Positions 5,863 to 43,973 of a stretch of 46,377 nt of DNA are shown here, in pieces (the first letter of the stretch is position 1; every line of letters begins with the position of its first letter). The stretch is from a virus. The notes beneath the pieces are model-generated. The model was not told the origin of the DNA and made no database searches. It was given only the letters and a program-made list of their open reading frames with translations. The translations under genes were made by a program, and so were the position numbers. The stretch lies in UHGV virus genome UHGV-1361494; one strand, 5' to 3'.

Positions 5863-8769
5863 ATGAAAGTACAGCTTAGAACATACCAACAAGAAGCTGT
5901 TGATTCTGTTATAGGTCATATTCGTTCAAGCGTTTCATCGTGCATGATCATCTTGCCTACGGGCTGCCACGCGAAAGGGACTGAGGTTCTTATGTTTGAT
6001 GGCAGCATAAAAAAAGTAGAGGATGTTGTTGTCGGTGATAAGCTGATGGGGCCGGACAGCAAGCCGCGCAATGTTTTGTTTCTGTGTCGTGGCAGAGAGT
6101 CAATGAGAAAGATAACGCCAACAAAAGGTGAACCTTTTGTTGTTAACGCAAGTCACGTATTGCACCTCAAGAAGGTTGCGAGCGGAAGCAAATATCCATC
6201 TCAAAAGCATGGTTACATTGATGAGAAAGTATCAGAGTTTGAATCGTCTTCCCAATGGCATAAGCACACGCATAAGTTATGTCGTGCTGGGGTTCAGTTC
6301 CCGGAAGCAAAACAAAATCTGCCCGCGAGATTTATTGGAATGATGTTGGGTGATGGCTCAACCACCAGAGGAACTGTAACTTTTTCAGGTAGCGAAGATG
6401 TTCTTATTGATTATTTTTGCAAGGTGGCTGCAGATTTTGGTTGCTATGCAAACGTAACAATGAAGAAATCAACATCGACCAAACACATTCACGCATCCGA
6501 AGGAAAGCGCGGAGGCAAAAAGAATGGTTTACAAGTAGAGATGGAATCGCTTGGTTTGCTGAACAAAAATTCTTATAGCGTTTTTATTCCTTATTGCTAT
6601 AAGGTTGCATCCAGAGAGCAAAGAATTGAATTGCTTTCTGGCCTTATTGATACGGACGGTTATCTTGGTAACAATTACTATGAGTTAACTACTGTATCAA
6701 AACATCTGGCTAATGATGTTGCTTTTGTGGCTCGTTCTCTTGGGTTGGCTGCGTACGTTAATACCGGAGCAGCTACATTGAATGGTGAGTTCATTTCTGA
6801 TAAATACAGAGTCACGATAAGTGGTGATATTGATATTTTGAAACCAATGATTGGTTATAAAAAGGCATCAGCAAGAAAGCAGAAGAAAGACGTATTGTGC
6901 ACTGGTTTTACGGTTGAAGAATTGCCAGAGGATTATTTCTATGGTTTTACTTTGGATGGTGATCACCTCTATCTAACTAGTGACTTCACGATACACCATA
7001 ATAGCGGTAAAAGCGTTGTTGTTGCATCAATAGCCGATTGGGTTTTTAAAAATACTGGCAAGCGTGTTCTATGTGTTGCCCCAACAAGCGAGTTAGTTGT
7101 ACAAAACAGGCAGCGTTATCTTTCTCTCACCGGAGAACCAGCCAGCATGTTCAGCGCAAAGGCTGGGCCAAAAAACCTGCGGCATCCGGTTGTTTTTGGC
7201 TCACCAGTTACAATCAAGAACTCAATAGAGATGTTTGGTGATAAGTATGGTGCTGTCATTATTGATGAGTGTGATGGAATAACACCAACCATTAAATTTA
7301 TTATTAATGAGATGAAGCGCCGCAATCCAAAGCTGCGTGTTATTGGGATGACCGCTACACCTTATCGCCTTGGAACTGGATACATCTACAAAGAGCACTA
7401 CCTCGACGGTCCTACAGATGAAGAAACAGCCATAGACCCATATTACGACAAAGTCGTTTATGAGCTTGAAGCTAAATTTCTCATCGAAAATGGATATCTT
7501 ACGCCACCAGTTACAGAGCCTGTTTTTGACGAGTATGATACGTCTTGTCTTGAAAAGGATAAGTTGGGTCGGTACACAACAGCTTCAGTTGAAAAGGCGA
7601 TGGTTGGCAAGGGAAGGAAAACATCACGTATTGTTGAAGATATTATCCGTCGCTCTGTTAATCGGCGCGGAACTATGATTTTTGCCAGCACCAAGAAACA
7701 CGCTATGGAGATAATGGAGTCACTTCCTCCCGGGTCTTATAGTTATGTTTTTGGTGATATGCCAACAGCAGATCGCAACAAGGCAATATCAGAGTTCAAG
7801 GAACAAAAAGTTAAATACATCGTTAACCAGAATATCCTTACTGTAGGGGTTGATGTCCCTCATTGTGATCACATAGCAGTAATGAGAGCAACAGAATCAC
7901 CAAGACTGTACCAGCAAATAATTGGCAGGGGCACGCGTCTTTATGAAGGAAAGGAAGACTTTCTTGTCAGTGATTACGCCGGAAATATTCAACGTCACTT
8001 TTCAGAAACTGGAGACTTGTTTACTCCAGAAATAAAAGCAACAAGGAAAAAACCATCCGTGCCAATGGATGTCAAATGCCCTCTTTGTGGCTTTATTAAT
8101 GAATTTGGTGTACGTCCAAATCCTGAAAATCTTGAAGTTGACAAGGAAGGTTACTGGCTTGATTTGGCTGGTGACAGGGTGATGATTGATATTTTTGATA
8201 AAACAGGTGAAAAAATTGGAAGCAAGCCTATGCCTGCTCATTTTGGGAGGAGGTGTAAAAACTACGTTATGCACGGGCCATTAAGGGAAATGCACAGGTG
8301 TACTTATAAGTGGTCGGTGAAAGATTGTCCTGATTGTGGATTTGAGAATGATATAGCGGCAAGAAACTGCACATCATGCGGTGCTGAAATAATTGACCCA
8401 AACCAAAAGCTAAAAGAAGAAGCTGACAGGCTTGATTCTTCTCCTTATGCAACAAAGCAATCAAGCGTAACCATGATGAACATTATGAAGCATTACGTTT
8501 CAAGTGGTGAAGATTTGGTGCACGTAAAATTTGCCATTGACCAGAAGCCATTTTTTGTTAGCAAGTTCTACAATCCAAACTCTGAGAAGGAATGGATGAA
8601 GAAGGAGTGGGAAGAGTTTTGCGGGAAGTGCTTTGGTGAATCTGACATGTCAATTGATGATGCAATAGCAAAAAGAGATGAGGCTGTCGCGCCATCAGTT
8701 ATTATGTTCAGAAGAGACAAGGGGAGTAAATATTTCAACGTTAAAGGCATGTATTGGGGGGTATTATGA
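5863..8769 (+). CDS. SF2 (DEAD/DEAH-box type) DNA helicase precursor interrupted by a LAGLIDADG intein; C-terminal zinc-ribbon repeats
   Basis: 968 aa. Walker A is split: ILPTG|C...HN|SGKSVV. Further motifs are motif II IIDECDG and motif VI QQIIGRGTR. C-terminal CxxC clusters (CPLCGF..., DCPDCGF..., CTSCG). The extein alone would be ~622 aa. Confidence 0.85.
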   Translation: MKVQLRTYQQEAVDSVIGHIRSSVSSCMIILPTGCHAKGTEVLMFDGSIKKVEDVVVGDKLMGPDSKPRNVLFLCRGRESMRKITPTKGEPFVVNASHVLHLKKVASGSKYPSQKHGYIDEKVSEFESSSQWHKHTHKLCRAGVQFPEAKQNLPARFIGMMLGDGSTTRGTVTFSGSEDVLIDYFCKVAADFGCYANVTMKKSTSTKHIHASEGKRGGKKNGLQVEMESLGLLNKNSYSVFIPYCYKVASREQRIELLSGLIDTDGYLGNNYYELTTVSKHLANDVAFVARSLGLAAYVNTGAATLNGEFISDKYRVTISGDIDILKPMIGYKKASARKQKKDVLCTGFTVEELPEDYFYGFTLDGDHLYLTSDFTIHHNSGKSVVVASIADWVFKNTGKRVLCVAPTSELVVQNRQRYLSLTGEPASMFSAKAGPKNLRHPVVFGSPVTIKNSIEMFGDKYGAVIIDECDGITPTIKFIINEMKRRNPKLRVIGMTATPYRLGTGYIYKEHYLDGPTDEETAIDPYYDKVVYELEAKFLIENGYLTPPVTEPVFDEYDTSCLEKDKLGRYTTASVEKAMVGKGRKTSRIVEDIIRRSVNRRGTMIFASTKKHAMEIMESLPPGSYSYVFGDMPTADRNKAISEFKEQKVKYIVNQNILTVGVDVPHCDHIAVMRATESPRLYQQIIGRGTRLYEGKEDFLVSDYAGNIQRHFSETGDLFTPEIKATRKKPSVPMDVKCPLCGFINEFGVRPNPENLEVDKEGYWLDLAGDRVMIDIFDKTGEKIGSKPMPAHFGRRCKNYVMHGPLREMHRCTYKWSVKDCPDCGFENDIAARNCTSCGAEIIDPNQKLKEEADRLDSSPYATKQSSVTMMNIMKHYVSSGEDLVHVKFAIDQKPFFVSKFYNPNSEKEWMKKEWEEFCGKCFGESDMSIDDAIAKRDEAVAPSVIMFRRDKGSKYFNVKGMYWGVL
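5965..7002 (+). mobile_element. intein (346 aa) with LAGLIDADG homing endonuclease domain, inserted in the helicase P-loop
   Basis: It begins with Cys (CHAKGTEVLMFDG...) immediately after ILPTG and ends ...FTIHHN, followed by +1 Ser (SGKS). Two LAGLIDADG motifs are present: FIGMMLGDGS and LLSGLIDTDGYL. Boundaries were computed from the codon frame (C codon at 5965-5967, terminal Asn codon at 7000-7002). Confidence 0.85.
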
Positions 8770-24615: not shown

Positions 24616-24776
24616 TAATTATTCTCCGAATGATGAACTTCCAGCATCTGTACACCTGAACCAGCGAAAGCGCCATGACGATAACGCCGATTGCTATATC
24701 CAATTTCGCCGCCTTACGATTTTCAGGACGGAACAGCGCGGGTTGAGTGTTGTTGGTTTAATTTTATCATAAAGTG

Positions 24777-24805
24777 TTGACGTAGATTGAGGGTGTCGCT
24801 ATAGT
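24777..24805 (+). promoter_or_regulatory. copy 2 of TTGACGTAGATTGA promoter (-35 TTGACG, 17 nt, -10 TATAGT)
   Basis: ttgacg 24777-24782; tatagt 24800-24805; a second partial motif gacgtagaaaca follows at 24808. Confidence 0.6.
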
Positions 24806-24845
24806 GATGACGTAGAAACAACAATAAATGTTAGAGGTGATGAGG

Positions 24846-25139
24846 ATGAATGAATTCAAAGGTACGCCGGGGCCGTGGTTTGGAGATAACAGCAGGGCAA
24901 TAGGGCCAAAATCAACAGATGACGACCAGTCTTATGGAGTGATTATTCCTGTCGGCTGGGTTGAGTTTGACCCTGAAGTTGAGGTTCAAGTTGCCAACCA
25001 ACGAATGATGGCCGCTGCGCCGGAATTGCTGGAGGCTCTGGAGATGCTTGTAGTCTTCACTACGCCAACAAAAAGGAATGCCACTGCCTTGAGCAAGGCC
25101 TATGCCGCAATCGCAAAAGCACTCGGAGAACCCCAATGA
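24846..25139 (+). CDS. hypothetical protein, first gene of the plus-strand DNA-metabolism island
   Basis: ORF 24828..25139; the best start is ATG 24846, after SD AGAGGTGA. Confidence 0.4.
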   Translation: MNEFKGTPGPWFGDNSRAIGPKSTDDDQSYGVIIPVGWVEFDPEVEVQVANQRMMAAAPELLEALEMLVVFTTPTKRNATALSKAYAAIAKALGEPQ

Positions 25140-25259
25140 TCCGCCACGAAATACGAAAAGAAGACCTGAAGGCGTGGGATAAGTTCAAAATCAAGCTGGC
25201 GTTAATCGTTATCGGATTCGCCATTGCCAGTGCAATCTGTTTATCAAAGTGAGGGAAAG

Positions 25260-26075
25260 ATGACATCTCTCGGAAAAATTTACTCAGACAAAGAAACTCG
25301 CGGCGGAATCGTGGTCAACAAAGGTTATCAGGTCCCTGTCGACCAGCTTTACCTTGAGCCGGGGTACAACATCCGCGAAGCCGATGAGCAGCACGTTGAA
25401 TACTTCGCGCAGTGTTGGGAATCAGGACAGCCAATCCCGGCGTTAACTGTTATTCCTGATGCCGACGGAAAGCGCATCAAGATTCTTGACGGCCAGCATC
25501 GTTACCTTGGAGCACTGCGTGCCATTGAGCGCGGCGTGCCAATTGCGCGAATTGAGTGCAAAGACTTCACCGGCGATGAGGCGGATAAAATCGCCTTCAT
25601 GGTGTCTTCAAGTCAGGGCAAGCAACTCGAGCCGCTTGAGCGTGCAAAGGCTTATGTGCGCCTCAAAGGGTTCGGGTGGACGAATGAAGAAATCGCCAAG
25701 AAGGTCGGGCGCTCTGTGTCTGATGTGCAAATGCACCTGTCACTTGGTGATGTACCTGATGCCATCAAGCAGCGTATCAATGCAGGCCAAATCAGCTATG
25801 CCAACGCCGTTGCGGTCGCACGTGAGCATGGCGATGATGCCGTTAACGTTATTGATGCCGCCGTTGAGGAAGCGAAAGCGCAGGGCAAAGATAAGGTGAC
25901 GGCTAAAACGCTCAAGGCCAAAAAAGTTAAGCCGATTGACCGCCTGATTCAGTTGCTGAAAGAAGCAGACCATATGGTTGTCGCTGAGGGTCATGTGGCA
26001 CAGGAGACAGAAGAATTTTTGCGCCCTCCTTCCGCTGAGTTGAGTGAAGTTCTGGCTATTCTGGAGAAGCTGTGA
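25260..26075 (+). CDS. ParB-like nuclease domain (ParB/Srx fold) protein
   Basis: ORF 25224..26075; start ATG 25260 after SD GAGGGA. N-terminal ParB box: LEPGYNIRE...KILDGQHRYLGAL (DGQHR motif); C-terminal helical DNA-binding region. Confidence 0.65.
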   Translation: MTSLGKIYSDKETRGGIVVNKGYQVPVDQLYLEPGYNIREADEQHVEYFAQCWESGQPIPALTVIPDADGKRIKILDGQHRYLGALRAIERGVPIARIECKDFTGDEADKIAFMVSSSQGKQLEPLERAKAYVRLKGFGWTNEEIAKKVGRSVSDVQMHLSLGDVPDAIKQRINAGQISYANAVAVAREHGDDAVNVIDAAVEEAKAQGKDKVTAKTLKAKKVKPIDRLIQLLKEADHMVVAEGHVAQETEEFLRPPSAELSEVLAILEKL

Positions 26076-27070
26076 TGACAGCCAGCTACTACAACGAATG
26101 GGACGCAAGTGCAGCGGCGTGGCTGCGAGAGTTAATTAACAATAAACTAATTCCTTACGGATATGTCGATGAACGATCAATCACCGAAGTCACCCCTTCA
26201 GACCTGGAAGGATTTACACAGTGTCACTTCTTTGCCGGAATCGGAGGGTGGCCCCTTGCACTCCAGTTGGCTGGAATACCAGCAAGCACTCAGCTCTGGA
26301 CAGGATCACCACCTTGCCAGCCGTTTAGCGTTGCCGGTAAGTCTCTCGGATTTGACGACGAGCGGCACCTTGCCCCAGCATTTCTCAGGCTCATCAGAGA
26401 GTGCAAGCCTCAATTGCTGTTTGGAGAGCAGGTTGCGGCAGCAATTGGAAAGCACTGGCTCGATTTTGTATTCCTTAACTTGGAAGACAAAGGCTACGCC
26501 TGCGGGTCGGCAGTATTGCCAGCGTGCAGCGTCGGTGCCCCGCACAAAAGAGACAGGCTGTTCTTTGGAGCGCGGCAACTGGGCGACACCAATAGTAAAC
26601 GACACAACCGGCAGCACGCATTGCTACAGCGGGAAGGACAGAAAGATATGCCTGAAGCTACCCGGACAGGCGAAGCTGGCCGCGTGGCCGACGCCAACGA
26701 CACGCGACCACAAGGATGGGAAGGAATGCTTGAACGTGCCTACAAGCAGCCTGCTGGGGCGGGAAGTGTGGAAGGTTGGACCAATCCGCATCACGGCTTC
26801 TGGTCAGATGCTGACTGGATCGGATGCCGGGATGGAAAGTTCAGGCCAGTTGAGGCCTGGACACAGCAGATGGTTGATGGGGTTCCCGGTGGAATGGGAC
26901 ATAGCGGCGATCCGTGCGTTGCAGCAGCCTTTGAAGAAATCGGATTCCCGCTTGGAAAAGACATCCCGGCGCGCGTTGCCCGCCTCAGAGGATACGGCAA
27001 TGCAATCGTACCCCAGTGCGCTGCCGAATTCATCGCCGCTTTCAGAGGGGCTATTGAAGACTTGTTCTGA
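26072..27070 (+). CDS. DNA (cytosine-5)-methyltransferase
   Basis: 332 aa. Motif I is FFAGIGGW (AdoMet binding), motif IV is GSPPCQPFSVAGK (catalytic PC), and a LFGEQV ENV-like motif follows. It overlaps the ParB-like stop by ATGA. Confidence 0.85.
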   Translation: MMTASYYNEWDASAAAWLRELINNKLIPYGYVDERSITEVTPSDLEGFTQCHFFAGIGGWPLALQLAGIPASTQLWTGSPPCQPFSVAGKSLGFDDERHLAPAFLRLIRECKPQLLFGEQVAAAIGKHWLDFVFLNLEDKGYACGSAVLPACSVGAPHKRDRLFFGARQLGDTNSKRHNRQHALLQREGQKDMPEATRTGEAGRVADANDTRPQGWEGMLERAYKQPAGAGSVEGWTNPHHGFWSDADWIGCRDGKFRPVEAWTQQMVDGVPGGMGHSGDPCVAAAFEEIGFPLGKDIPARVARLRGYGNAIVPQCAAEFIAAFRGAIEDLF

Positions 27071-40937: not shown

Positions 40938-43472
40938 TCATCTCCTGCTCCTTCTAATCCATCCAGAGCCACGCTGTACGATGTGATCGTTGCATGCATA
41001 TCTGATTGCGTCAATGAAGTGGTTCCACGCATCCACAATATTTGTGAGCACGTTACCCGTCAGCTTGTCCACCTTGTAACTGTACATAGTGAACTCTTCC
41101 TGAGTCTGTGTGCAGCGGTCATGAATGATGATGCTGTCGCAACCCCTGAGCCAGGTTACACCCTCCTCCACGCTCCCGGGCCACTTATTGCATGGATGGA
41201 TATCAAATCCTGCGCGTTTGATGTGACTGATTGTTTCTGGCCGAGAGCAGTCCCCATACCATCTTGCCTTCCTGGAGAGTGGGAATGATTGCTCCATCGC
41301 TGTAGGTGTGTCGGTAATCTCAAGGCCTACACGGCCGTATTCGCGCGCGACGTAAAGGTTGCGGCGGTCATCAGGAAGTTTCTCAATGTAAACCTCAACC
41401 ATCGCCGTTGCGTCCTGCGAGAATCCAAAGTCGATGCCAAAGTAAGGCCCATGCCATTCCGGCTTAACCTCGAAATCAGCAACGCGCCACTTACCGCCAA
41501 ATACCTGCTCATCATTACGCTTATTAAAGCGCCCACCCCACACCCATTGATAGCGGTCGAAGTCGGTCTCTTTCATGCGTTGCATTTGGCTTGGGAGCGG
41601 AGTATCCCAGAACCACGGATTGTCTGAGTAATTACACTCCATAATCAGGTTTTCATCATCCTCATAGATGCCGCCATTTTCGCGCAATTTATTATAAAAA
41701 GGCTCAACCCATATTTTCCACGTCGGGTCATGCTCTTTATTTGGGTTGAAAGTCACCCATATCTCTGACCCTTCAGCGCGGACTGTTGGGGTGAGGATTT
41801 CCCAGCTTGTCTGGCTGACGTTTTCCGCCTCCTCGACCCAAGCTACTGTAATGCCAGCGAAGCCTTTTACGGTCGTCTGGTTGCGATACAGGCCTTTAAA
41901 GCGGAACTTTGCTTTCGTTACCTTGTGTGTTATTTCGTTGTTGATGACGCGAAACTCTTTTGTCTCGCCCTTGCGATCAATTTCGTCCTTCAGTTCCTGA
42001 TATGAGCTATCTTCAATGGACTGCTGAATCTCACGAAAGCAAGCTATCCTGTCAGGCTTAAAGCGTGCACGCTCCGTAAGTATTGTTGTTACTGTCCTTG
42101 TTTTTCCGCTGTTGTGTGTAACCGTGCCATCAGCAAGCAGGAAAAGATGATCGCCATCAATAGTGAACCCAGCGTATTCACCATGCCCGACATAAGACAA
42201 TGACACCTCAGTCATCTTTCCACGGGTTGACTTGGTTTTCTCTGCTATCTTCCTTTTTACTCGGCATGGGATTGTATGAAGGTCACCACTAACGAACACC
42301 TCCCATACGTCCTTTTCGTATATTCTTTTCTCACCTTTATATTCAAAGGTGACATCAGTCTTTTTGATTATGCTTGACTTGAAGCCAAGCGATCTTGCCA
42401 CATCCATCAAAGAGAAGGCCATTTCTTTATTTATTGATGTGAAAGAATAGCTTTTCTTTTTCTGGTCATAATGCGAATCAGTATCCAATAGCCCAGCCAG
42501 AATCTGAAGTCTTACCTCTCTGCTGTTTTTGATATAGCAGTCAGGTATGTGTTTATTATTAATCACCCCAAGCTGCTGCATTTTAGTTAGTAACGGGTTG
42601 GTGTTCTTCCCCATGCCAGCAGCTCGACCATTAGTTATCGCATAGACAGGGCATCTATCATCGTCGCGAACCTTTACCTGCATCCCGTATTGGCTTGCCA
42701 CGTTGTGAATGTAGTCAACTATCTCTGGATCAGGCGTGCACACTTCAACACCACGAGATGAACCATCACCTAACCATAAACCAAGAAAGTACGGGTCAAC
42801 TGGGACGCTTTGGTCATTAAAATCCCATCCTGTTCGCCACCCTTTAAAGACATGGCGGAACTTTTTGGAAGTTGCGCGCGACAAATATTCTGAAACACCA
42901 ATATTCAGTATTTCAGGTTCATTCGGGTAATAACGATAAATTCTTTTACCATCCGGTGTTTTTGTCTCGTCACTGATAGCAGATGGAATCTTTCGTAATG
43001 ACAGTATGTGACTTGAGTTGACAGTGTAGTCATCAGCATATTTTTGATGAACCGTATACATGTCATCAAACCCCCGACAGATGTTTAAAACATTTCGTGG
43101 TTTACTGTCTGGACCCATAACCTTATCGCCAACAACGATATCCTCTACGCGTTTTAGGCTACCATCAAACATCCTCACCATCGTGCCGATGGCTAAGCAT
43201 CCGCGCCCGCCAAACACAATCTTATTACGCTTGGGGTAAAGTAGCTTTTCCAGCTTTTCTGGTATCAGGTGATCAACGCCAATATCAGAGTCGCTAACGT
43301 CATCAACTCCGCTTTGCGTCATTTTTAGTTTGCGAACAATCTGCTTATCTGTATTAACAACACCGAACACCGCAGATTCAGGCGCATCAATCACGCCATC
43401 GCCAATAATCTCTTCGAGTTTTTCAATTGCTGGTGCTGAGAGTCTTTTGCGTGCCATATATAGATTCCTCAT
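40938..43472 (-). CDS. terminase large subunit precursor interrupted by a LAGLIDADG intein
   Basis: 844 aa. Walker A is split: IVFGGRG|C...HN|SGKTRTVTTI. The downstream ATPase and C-terminal RNaseH-like nuclease domain have size and motifs typical of TerL. It lies next to the TerS-like gene. Confidence 0.85.
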   Translation of the reverse strand: MRNLYMARKRLSAPAIEKLEEIIGDGVIDAPESAVFGVVNTDKQIVRKLKMTQSGVDDVSDSDIGVDHLIPEKLEKLLYPKRNKIVFGGRGCLAIGTMVRMFDGSLKRVEDIVVGDKVMGPDSKPRNVLNICRGFDDMYTVHQKYADDYTVNSSHILSLRKIPSAISDETKTPDGKRIYRYYPNEPEILNIGVSEYLSRATSKKFRHVFKGWRTGWDFNDQSVPVDPYFLGLWLGDGSSRGVEVCTPDPEIVDYIHNVASQYGMQVKVRDDDRCPVYAITNGRAAGMGKNTNPLLTKMQQLGVINNKHIPDCYIKNSREVRLQILAGLLDTDSHYDQKKKSYSFTSINKEMAFSLMDVARSLGFKSSIIKKTDVTFEYKGEKRIYEKDVWEVFVSGDLHTIPCRVKRKIAEKTKSTRGKMTEVSLSYVGHGEYAGFTIDGDHLFLLADGTVTHNSGKTRTVTTILTERARFKPDRIACFREIQQSIEDSSYQELKDEIDRKGETKEFRVINNEITHKVTKAKFRFKGLYRNQTTVKGFAGITVAWVEEAENVSQTSWEILTPTVRAEGSEIWVTFNPNKEHDPTWKIWVEPFYNKLRENGGIYEDDENLIMECNYSDNPWFWDTPLPSQMQRMKETDFDRYQWVWGGRFNKRNDEQVFGGKWRVADFEVKPEWHGPYFGIDFGFSQDATAMVEVYIEKLPDDRRNLYVAREYGRVGLEITDTPTAMEQSFPLSRKARWYGDCSRPETISHIKRAGFDIHPCNKWPGSVEEGVTWLRGCDSIIIHDRCTQTQEEFTMYSYKVDKLTGNVLTNIVDAWNHFIDAIRYACNDHIVQRGSGWIRRSRR
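42111..43199 (-). mobile_element. intein (363 aa) with LAGLIDADG homing endonuclease domain in the TerL P-loop
   Basis: Starts CLAIGTMVRMFDGSLKRVEDIVVGDKVMGPDSKPRNVL..., ends ...LLADGTVTHN, +1 Ser. LAGLIDADG motifs YFLGLWLGDGSS and ILAGLLDTDSHY. Boundaries were derived by codon counting on the reverse strand (Cys codon 43199-43197; Asn codon 42113-42111). Confidence 0.85.
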
Positions 43473-43556
43473 CAGGGCATCATTGAAGTGAATGCGGCAG
43501 GCGGTGATGAGTCGCTTTTCGGGTGCCCCCTAGCCGCATTGATTATTATAAATCAG

Positions 43557-43973
43557 TTACTGTTGCTGCTCCAGTAATTTCTCCAGTCGCTCAAGGCGTG
43601 CGGCGAGCTCTGTTACTTCTTCGATATCAAGCCCAGTCCTGATAACCTCAGCAAATGTCTTGCCAATGTCCACAGGTATAACGCCAGCGGCTATGCCACG
43701 AATAACGGCGTCAATCTTCTGAACAGGGGTTCCGTCATCAGGGAAGTCCACCTCAAACACTGGGGCGACTGGTTTCGGCAACGGACTGAACCGAACGATA
43801 AGCTCCTTCATCATTGCAGTGTCACGTTCAATCATCGCCATCTCAACGATGGTGTCATAGAGCTTTTCCTCACTAAATCCCTTTCTCTCAAGAGCTTCAA
43901 CGAGCAACTTACGCTTGTCTTTCCCGCGTTTGTTTTGTGGTTGATTTTCTTTACTGAATAGCTTTTTAGCCAT
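43557..43973 (-). CDS. putative terminase small subunit
   Basis: 138 aa, basic N-terminus (KENQPQNKRGKDKRKLLVEALERKG), C-terminal coiled coil; immediately upstream of TerL. Confidence 0.5.
   Translation of the reverse strand: MAKKLFSKENQPQNKRGKDKRKLLVEALERKGFSEEKLYDTIVEMAMIERDTAMMKELIVRFSPLPKPVAPVFEVDFPDDGTPVQKIDAVIRGIAAGVIPVDIGKTFAEVIRTGLDIEEVTELAARLERLEKLLEQQQ

Follow-up and report, generated by a model that had tools for sequence, protein, structure and literature searches.

In the genome of the virus UHGV-1361494 (46,377 nucleotides, hereafter designated the window), two P-loop ATPases that are not homologous to each other, a superfamily 2 (SF2) helicase and the large terminase (TerL), are each interrupted within the Walker A motif by an intein, designated i1 in the helicase and i2 in TerL. 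By comparing the two inteins with each other and with their relatives, we consider it probable (about 0.8) that they are two independently acquired, distant members of a large family of PI-SceI-like bifunctional inteins residing in Walker A, and that the position they share reflects a preference of this family. A preliminary description of the window, made from its sequence, had taken them for closely related inteins, one of which had recently been transferred between the two genes; the insertions themselves were borne out in full, and the recent transfer was not.

The helicase precursor is encoded by an intact open reading frame of 968 residues on the plus strand (positions 5863–8769), predicted to give a protein of 622 residues once spliced. 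It consists of an N-extein of 34 residues (5863–5964) ending with MIILPTG, the first half of Walker A; i1 (5965–7002; 346 residues, 1038 nucleotides), with a PI-SceI-like Hint domain and a double-motif LAGLIDADG endonuclease; and a C-extein with the stop codon (7003–8769) beginning with SGKSVV, the second half of Walker A, in which the Ser at +1 has the codon AGC. The TerL precursor, of the Terminase_3 family, is encoded by an intact frame of 844 residues on the minus strand (40938–43472), although translation may in fact begin at the Met at 43457, since the annotation of phage KpV2811 begins with MARKRL. Its N-extein (43200–43472) ends with KIVFGGRG, i2 (42111–43199; 363 residues) again combines a PI-SceI-like Hint domain with a LAGLIDADG endonuclease, begins with Cys1 and ends with His-Asn, Ser being at +1, and the C-extein with the stop codon (40938–42110) begins with SGKTRT, also with AGC for the Ser at +1. 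On re-translation, the junctions (marked by a slash) were MIILPTG/CHAKGT and FTIHHN/SGKSVV for i1 and KIVFGGRG/CLAIGT and GTVTHN/SGKTRT for i2, exactly as described before, with Walker A split between Gly and Ser in both hosts. Pfam models recognized ResIII, DEAD and Helicase_C in the helicase exteins and Terminase_3 and Terminase_3C in the TerL exteins.

Over their full lengths, i1 and i2 are homologous (BLASTP, E = 4e-60) and 35% identical, and no nucleotide similarity between them was detected beyond one stretch of 86 nucleotides at 80%. Their description as closely related thus holds as to homology and overstates the closeness. The identity is unevenly distributed, being 59% in the N-terminal splicing part (residues 1–68), 26% in the linker or accessory region, 30% in the endonuclease core and 36% in the C-terminal splicing part. 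The relatives of both inteins were gathered from 5.8 billion proteins, and 176 complete inteins were extracted and aligned with the pair; because distance trees are weak at such divergence, ranks, bootstrapped ranks, score differences between hidden Markov models (HMMs) and rank tests were used instead. In this alignment, the similarity between i1 and i2 was equalled or surpassed by that of 115 of the 176 relatives to i1 and of 124 to i2, so that the two copies are not mutual nearest relatives. Ranked by Kimura distance, the partner intein came 102nd and 144th of 177, respectively, and, in 1000 column bootstraps, i2 was among the ten nearest relatives of i1 once and i1 among those of i2 never. 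In a neighbour-joining tree with midpoint rooting, i1 and i2 fell on opposite sides of the root, and their smallest common clade was the entire tree. The inteins in helicases of cultured phages, namely, Vibrio phage 1.009.O, PJ16, JD001-like Klebsiella phages and Jersey-like Salmonella phages, were 38–44% identical to i1 and all closer to it than i2; beyond its orthologues, i2 was 37–43% identical to inteins in thymidine kinase, DnaB, UvrD and helicases.

The preliminary description had further pointed to a nearly identical N-terminal stretch of 29 residues, about three-quarters identical in DNA, and this held on alignment. The patch in i1 (MFDGSIKKVEDVVVGDKLMGPDSKPRNVL, 5992–6078, plus strand) and that in i2 (MFDGSLKRVEDIVVGDKVMGPDSKPRNVL, 43086–43172, minus strand) agree at 25 of 29 residues and at 69 of 87 nucleotides (79%). 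Different codons are used at 10 of the 25 identical residues, and the codon is the same at 8 of the first 9. The patch is, however, the most conserved stretch of the whole intein family (176 complete inteins), with the consensus M-Y-D-G-x-x-K-x-V-E-D-I-x-V-G-D-x-L-M-G-P-D-S-x-P-R-x-V-L, and, compared with family members, it is on average 67% identical in i1 (maximum 86%) and 63% in i2 (maximum 83%). Since it is conserved family-wide and its synonymous sites have diverged, the patch is not evidence of a recent transfer.

Nor do the target sites resemble each other closely. The reconstituted homing sites of the helicase and TerL genes have 6 of 21 nucleotides in common on the 5' side and 11 of 21 on the 3' side (17 of 42 in all), with the core AGCGGnAAAA, whereas homing enzymes of this sort usually read about 14–40 bp (PMC4760082). 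Because the sites share so few nucleotides, it seems unlikely that either endonuclease would recognize the site of the other, and the same comparison weighs against the proposal that ectopic homing was guided here by the coding sequence of G-SGK[ST]. As a separate observation on these sites, the codon of the Ser at +1 was AGY in all three phage inteins at this position that were examined (AGC at 7003–7005 and 42108–42110 of the window and AGT in PJ16), followed by GGN AAA, and intein-less alleles use TCN there; with three intein cases, a target preference and a hitch-hiking flank are both possible.

Within the family, insertion is concentrated in Walker A at two sharply preferred positions. 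As many as 171 of the 176 complete members lie inside this motif, 74 at G/[STC]GK[ST] (register a) and 97 at GK/[ST] (register b); both inteins of the window, at G/SGK[ST], are in register a. The hosts belong to at least 19 Pfam families of P-loop nucleoside triphosphatases (NTPases), including ResIII/DEAD, PhoH, RecA, DnaB, thymidine kinase, dTMP kinase, ABC, UvrD and SNF2, and further AAA, AAA_24, AAA_25, AAA_33, AAA_5, KaiC, RuvB, Zeta, Clp and Terminase_3. The nearest relative was in the same register in 161 of 171 cases, and, among the 70 cases with a host label, it shared the host family in 42. Because nearest relatives share the register far more than the host family, switching among unrelated P-loop hosts is, judging from these alignments, clearly common at the family scale; the earlier notion of movement between P-loops of unrelated NTPases stands at that scale and not for the two genes of the window. 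Family members at ~30% identity were also seen in giant-virus metagenome assemblies (GVMAG contigs of IMG/VR).

The two inteins differ in their affinities to the registers. Between HMMs of the two registers, the score difference was +27 bits for i1, as in a typical a-type intein, and -35 bits for i2, as in a b-type intein, and in two-fold cross-validation no other register-a intein fell below -14. Moreover, register b supplied 33 of the 40 inteins nearest to i2, which was significantly closer to this register than to register a (Mann-Whitney p = 7e-8), and family members occur at GRGSGK/S in other Terminase_3 proteins. These results suggest, though as a suggestion only, that i2 descends from inteins of the GK/[ST] group, with a shift of three codons, so that the position it shares with i1 would be convergent; the register signal is deep, with distances of about 0.9 or more, in a sequence set seeded by i1 and i2.

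The two inteins also occur separately in nature. In the phage collection and IMG/VR, the only other genome with i1 (100% protein identity) was that of Klebsiella phage YX3973, whereas orthologues of i2 with 95–99% identity at the protein level are present in TerL of pIS4-A, pYD38-A, KpV2811, Segz_1 and ST44/46/65, and i2 was found at 93–100% in 12 IMG/VR contigs. KpV2811 carries i2 only, its helicase module being different and non-matching, and YX3973 carries i1 only, its TerL being different, divergent and intein-less; related phages lacking one of the inteins, which the preliminary description had suggested looking for, were thus found, as were intein-less host alleles. Among the close relatives examined in public phage records and IMG/VR contigs, i1 and i2 were not found together in one genome. 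Megablast alignments with KpV2811 and YX3973 covered 69% and 74% of the window, respectively. Compared with YX3973, i1 of the window has a single nucleotide difference, at 6132 and outside the patch, and the N-terminal splicing domain of i2 has no differences from that of KpV2811. Because the single-intein genomes carry the same patch sequences, the identity within the patch was not made by a meeting of i1 and i2 in the genome of the window. The window is best explained as a Klebsiella-type phage that is a mosaic of YX3973-like and KpV2811-like parts, in which the two inteins would have come to reside together by modular recombination between single-intein phages. Elsewhere, a search of the phage collection with i1 gave two separate matching places in 21 of the 683 matching records, so that co-residence of two members also occurs in other phages, and 49 records of 'Stx2a-converting' phages matched i2 and not i1.

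Between the helicase genes of the window and YX3973, the exteins differ at 58 of 1866 nucleotides and i1 at 1 of 1038. This low divergence of the intein relative to the exteins, from which a very recent homing of i1 might be read, was rejected as evidence for it, as the differences are confined to two imported patches: 58 of the 59 lie in 7374–7455 and 7950–8367, surrounded by near-identical DNA, and these two stretches look like small recombination imports in the C-extein. In YX3973, a free-standing coding sequence annotated as 'homing endonuclease' (24726–25238) overlaps the start of TerL (25231–26655), the equivalent region of the window being ~43473–43560; in this phage group, selfish endonuclease elements of two different kinds seem to target the TerL locus.

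The inserts carry the residues that define splicing and cleavage in this class. Both start with Cys1 and end with His-Asn followed by Ser at +1 (IHHN/S in i1 and VTHN/S in i2), as had been noted before, and both contain the block B His (VNASHVL in i1 and VNSSHIL in i2), with Ser where Thr is usual in this TxxH-type motif. The key residues of i1 are Cys1, the block B His64, His345-Asn346 and the Ser at +1; in an alignment of 70 sequences, Cys1, His64, Asp130, Asp229, His345 and Asn346 were invariant, Asp130 and Asp229 lying within the two LAGLIDADG motifs, and Asp231 was nearly invariant. The two LAGLIDADG motifs reported for each insert are present: ARFIGMMLGDGST (6325–6363) and IELLSGLIDTDGYL (6625–6666) in i1 and, on the minus strand, YFLGLWLGDGSS (42756–42791) and LQILAGLLDTDSHY (42468–42509) in i2. 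Each has an acidic residue aligned to a catalytic residue of PI-SceI, namely, Asp130 of i1 and Asp145 of i2 to Asp218, and Asp231 of i1 and Asp241 of i2 to Asp326. In Pfam, Hom_end_hint (3.9e-23 for i1), Hom_end (35.8 and 41.2 bits for the two inserts; cut-off, 21.1) and LAGLIDADG_3 (36.0 and 33.3 bits; cut-off, 22.5) were all above their curated cut-offs in both. Among i2 orthologues, the ratio of nonsynonymous to synonymous substitution rates (dN/dS) was 0.10–0.27, and it was 0.16–0.26 for the endonuclease domain alone, which is under purifying selection. Collectively, both inserts can be assigned to class-1 inteins, and their double-motif LAGLIDADG endonucleases appear intact. Both precursors are presumably spliced, since the host genes are essential and the catalytic residues intact, and both endonucleases are presumably active, given the conserved residues and the population patterns; the mechanistic reading of i1 and i2 as two spliced, mobile inteins in essential ATPases appears sound.

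The fold comparison, made for i1 only, pointed to the same class. An AlphaFold model of i1 based on the 70-sequence alignment (predicted local distance difference test, pLDDT, 95.1; predicted template modelling score, pTM, 0.93) was compared with known structures by Foldseek, and the top match was PI-SceI (template modelling, TM, score 0.81–0.84), followed by TliVMA and PhoVMA. PI-SceI, the VMA1 intein of Saccharomyces cerevisiae (Pfam PF05203 Hom_end_hint and PF05204 Hom_end), is the best solved relative of both i1 (E = 5e-25) and i2 (E = 1.8e-20, that is, ~2e-20), and shares with them the N-terminal block (CFAKGTNVLMADGSIECIENIEVGNKVMGKDGRPREV), the two LAGLIDADG motifs, the aligned catalytic Asp residues and the C-terminal His-Asn. 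It differs in length, the region between block B and LAGLIDADG motif 1 accounting for most of the ~100 residues by which it exceeds i1 and i2, and in having Cys at +1, where the phage inteins have Ser. Moreover, PI-SceI resides at the VMA-a site, which is distinct from the P-loop site VMA-b (PMC8966425), whereas i1 and i2 are inside Walker A; an argument that took PI-SceI itself to lie in the V-ATPase P-loop was dropped, as the literature separates yeast VMA-a from VMA-b (PMC8966425). TliVMA and PhoVMA (PDB 7qss, 7qst and 7qsu; PMC8966425) are archaeal VMA-b inteins, which are endonuclease-associated and located in an ATPase P-loop; they were the second-best structures (TM score 0.63–0.66), and they differ from i1 in other accessory domains and in having only 14–16% identity to it in the structural alignment.

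Excision of either insert rebuilds Walker A, and the result agrees with natural intein-less alleles. The intein-less helicase genes of Escherichia phage ECO111 5-P and Shigella phage Sf11 are exactly 1869 nucleotides long, that is, 2907 minus 1038, and read ILPTGSGKS; their DNA identity to the joined helicase exteins of the window is 96.0% and 93.0%, respectively, and the junction peptide MIILPTGSGKSVVVAS is identical in all three. The intein-less site in Sf11 and ECO111 5-P is CCTACAGGG/TCTGGAAAAAGC. An intein-less TerL of 476 residues was found in Klebsiella phage KP591P1; it can be aligned along its whole length with the TerL exteins of the window once these are joined, and it has the site FGGRGSSKT. 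The exteins can therefore be re-joined into intact Walker A motifs, as had been anticipated, and match the layout of these three proteins. In the TerL of KP591P1 (site corresponding to 42099–42110 of the window), Ser replaces the conserved Gly of Walker A, and the four codons following the junction all differ from those of the window (TCA TCG AAG ACC versus AGC GGA AAA ACA); this site could be an endonuclease-resistant variant of the target or simply the outcome of old divergence.

Around the insertion sites, presence/absence polymorphism among close alleles was observed in both genes, together with changes in the flanks. At the helicase junction, synonymous differences are clustered, the intein-plus alleles having ACG GGC/AGC GGT and the intein-less alleles ACA GGG/TCT GGA; because the swap between the Ser codons AGC and TCT is unreachable by single synonymous steps, the flank was probably imported rather than drifting in place. 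Divergence between intein-plus and intein-less helicase alleles is raised from ~50 nucleotides upstream to ~200 nucleotides downstream of the junction. In TerL, Segz_1 and the window are 98.5% identical in nucleotide sequence over the N-extein, 95.2% over the intein and 81.1% over the C-extein, and KP591P1 diverges strongly from the window over the N-extein and ~100 nucleotides past the junction, after which the identity is ~93–95%. Such footprints are standard for homing with co-conversion, and we infer from them that both inteins home, or did so until recently, each into its own site.

With these results in hand, other histories of the pair can be weighed. A recent jump within this genome, in which one intein passed from either of the two P-loops to the other by ectopic homing through G-SGK[ST], would account for the same Walker A position, the same chemistry (Cys1, His-Asn and Ser at +1), the same AGC codon at +1, the AGCGGnAAAA common to the 3' flanks and the patch with 25 of 29 residues and 79% of the DNA identical. 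It is extremely improbable, as i1 and i2 are 35% identical overall and similar in DNA over 86 nucleotides only, more than 100 relatives in other hosts are closer to each intein than the pair to each other, the patch is family-wide and uses different codons at 10 of 25 identical residues, the nearest relatives carry each intein alone, and the homing sites share 17 of 42 nucleotides. The same transfer might be placed far back, in an ancestor of the phage group, leaving old intragenomic paralogues after long divergence; the homology (E = 4e-60), the same register and the exchange of modules among phage groups would suit it. However, i1 groups with G/xGK-register inteins of helicases, PhoH and AAA proteins, and i2 with GK/[ST]-register inteins of DnaB, thymidine kinase, UvrD, RuvB and ABC proteins, as expressed in the +27 and -35 bits, the rank test (p = 7e-8) and the 33 register-b inteins among the 40 nearest to i2; moreover, i1 was seen only in YX3973 and the window, and i2 is spread over many phages without i1. 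An ancient transfer of this kind appears very unlikely.

Separate origins followed by a short gene conversion between co-resident copies, over the N-terminal 29 codons, would explain why the patch identity tops the family distribution, why the same codon is used at 8 of the first 9 identical residues, and why DNA identity and same-codon counts are slightly high (P ~0.02–0.03, a value obtained post hoc). Yet ten synonymous codon differences are left in the patch, and the same patch is found in genomes lacking the partner (i1 in YX3973 and i2 in KpV2811), being equally similar between these single-intein genomes, so that we give such a conversion hardly more credence than the recent jump. Of another kind, and compatible with the independent acquisition of two family members, is the view that the inteins are kept for a benefit to the phage, such as conditional splicing that holds helicase and terminase inactive. 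Selective retention has been put forward as the reason why inteins are concentrated in the P-loops of ATPases (PMC4760082; PMC5050341), and, with both inserts interrupting Walker A, the precursors must be inactive. On the other hand, phages with exteins 93–96% identical manage without the intein, and the conserved endonuclease residues and purifying selection fit the lifestyle of a mobile element; a benefit of this sort is unlikely, if less so than the histories considered above.

Several points weigh against the independent acquisition of i1 and i2. The identity of their patches (86%) is at the top edge of the family range, being equalled by 2 of the 176 relatives for i1 and by none of the 176 for i2. 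At the DNA level, 69 identical nucleotides were observed in the patch against 62.4 +/- 3.0 (72%) expected from the peptides and the codon usage of the window, with a one-sided P of ~0.02 that is post hoc and uncorrected for the choice of the stretch; a small extra affinity between i1 and i2 within the patch is therefore conceivable. The relatives were found by searches seeded with i1 and i2, with the best 120 matches listed per search, and the phylogenetic signal is shallow, distances between subfamilies all being ~0.9–1.3.

Both inteins belong to a known kind. The concentration of inteins in P-loops is well documented for helicases, RecA, PhoH, UvrD and phage terminases (PMC4760082; PMC5050341), GK/T being the 'classic' P-loop insertion (PMC4760082; PMC5050341). 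The record of gp34 of Salmonella phage vB_SenS-Ent1 ('putative intein containing helicase precursor') already annotates an intein with a LAGLIDADG endonuclease. The helicase inteins of Jersey-like and other siphophages (Ent1, JD001, PJ16 and Vibrio 1.009.O) are of the same family, with 38–44% identity to i1, and likewise interrupt Walker A of an SF2 helicase; they differ in lying mostly three residues downstream (GK/T), and only that of PJ16 is in the register of i1 (LPTG/SGKT). In the record of YX3973, i1 is not annotated as an intein. In RefSeq, the intein-bearing helicases of YX3973 (NC_054652.1) and JD001 (NC_020204.1) are named 'terminase large subunit', whereas the GenBank versions say helicase; this label was likely transferred via the shared intein. 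The counterparts of i2 are the TerL1-a and TerL1-b inteins of mycobacteriophages (Kelley et al. 2016, PMC5050341), which, like i2, lie in Walker A of the large terminase in two close registers; their insertion points are one residue apart, and splicing and, for some, cleavage of the intein-less allele have been shown (PMC5050341). They differ in having a Terminase_1 host and occurring in actinophages, i2 being in Terminase_3 at G/SGKT within a family whose registers are three residues apart. Of the two, i1 is rare and was not annotated as an intein before, and i2 is widespread.

Under the favoured explanation, in which two distant family members were acquired independently, each intein would be translated in frame within its host ATPase, which would have no P-loop until splicing. 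As judged from the conserved residues, an N-S acyl shift at Cys1 would be followed by transesterification to the Ser at +1 and by Asn cyclisation aided by the penultimate His, and a final O-N shift would rebuild ILPTG-SGKS or FGGRG-SGKT. In co-infection, each endonuclease would cleave intein-less copies of the gene that hosts it, as the presence/absence polymorphism and the flank patterns suggest, and repair would copy the intein and some flanking sequence into the cut allele. A YX3973-like replication module with i1 and a KpV2811/pIS4-A-like packaging module with i2 would then have been brought into one mosaic genome. The shared Walker A position would reflect the P-loop preference of the family and not copying between the helicase and TerL genes, and the near-identical N-terminal stretch would be the conserved splicing block of the family.

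A broader proposal, which we hold as possible but rather doubtful, is that i2 is a b-type intein moved three codons upstream to G/SGKT by convergence and that the PI-SceI-like clade is a P-loop specialist spread across at least 19 NTPase families in two registers. Accessory DNA-binding domains have been brought into the discussion of how inteins reach new sites (PMC8966425). An explicit description of a P-loop-specialist clade with a register shift was not found in the literature searched, nor, with incomplete access to that literature, were reports of one related intein clade moving among the P-loops of unrelated proteins. If true, the family would offer a natural series for the re-aiming of LAGLIDADG specificity, anchored by ~10 conserved Walker A nucleotides.

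A fresh intragenomic jump, if true, would have shown ectopic homing directly, which is rarely possible. The window provides a clean natural case of two members of a P-loop intein family in one small phage genome, with matched intein-less alleles in Sf11 and ECO111 5-P for the helicase and in KP591P1 for TerL that are usable for work on homing and cross-cleavage. In practical terms, such inteins lead to mis-annotation, as in the two RefSeq helicase records. For the family as a whole, the survey gives the scale of host switching among P-loop NTPases, together with two sharply preferred registers in Walker A.

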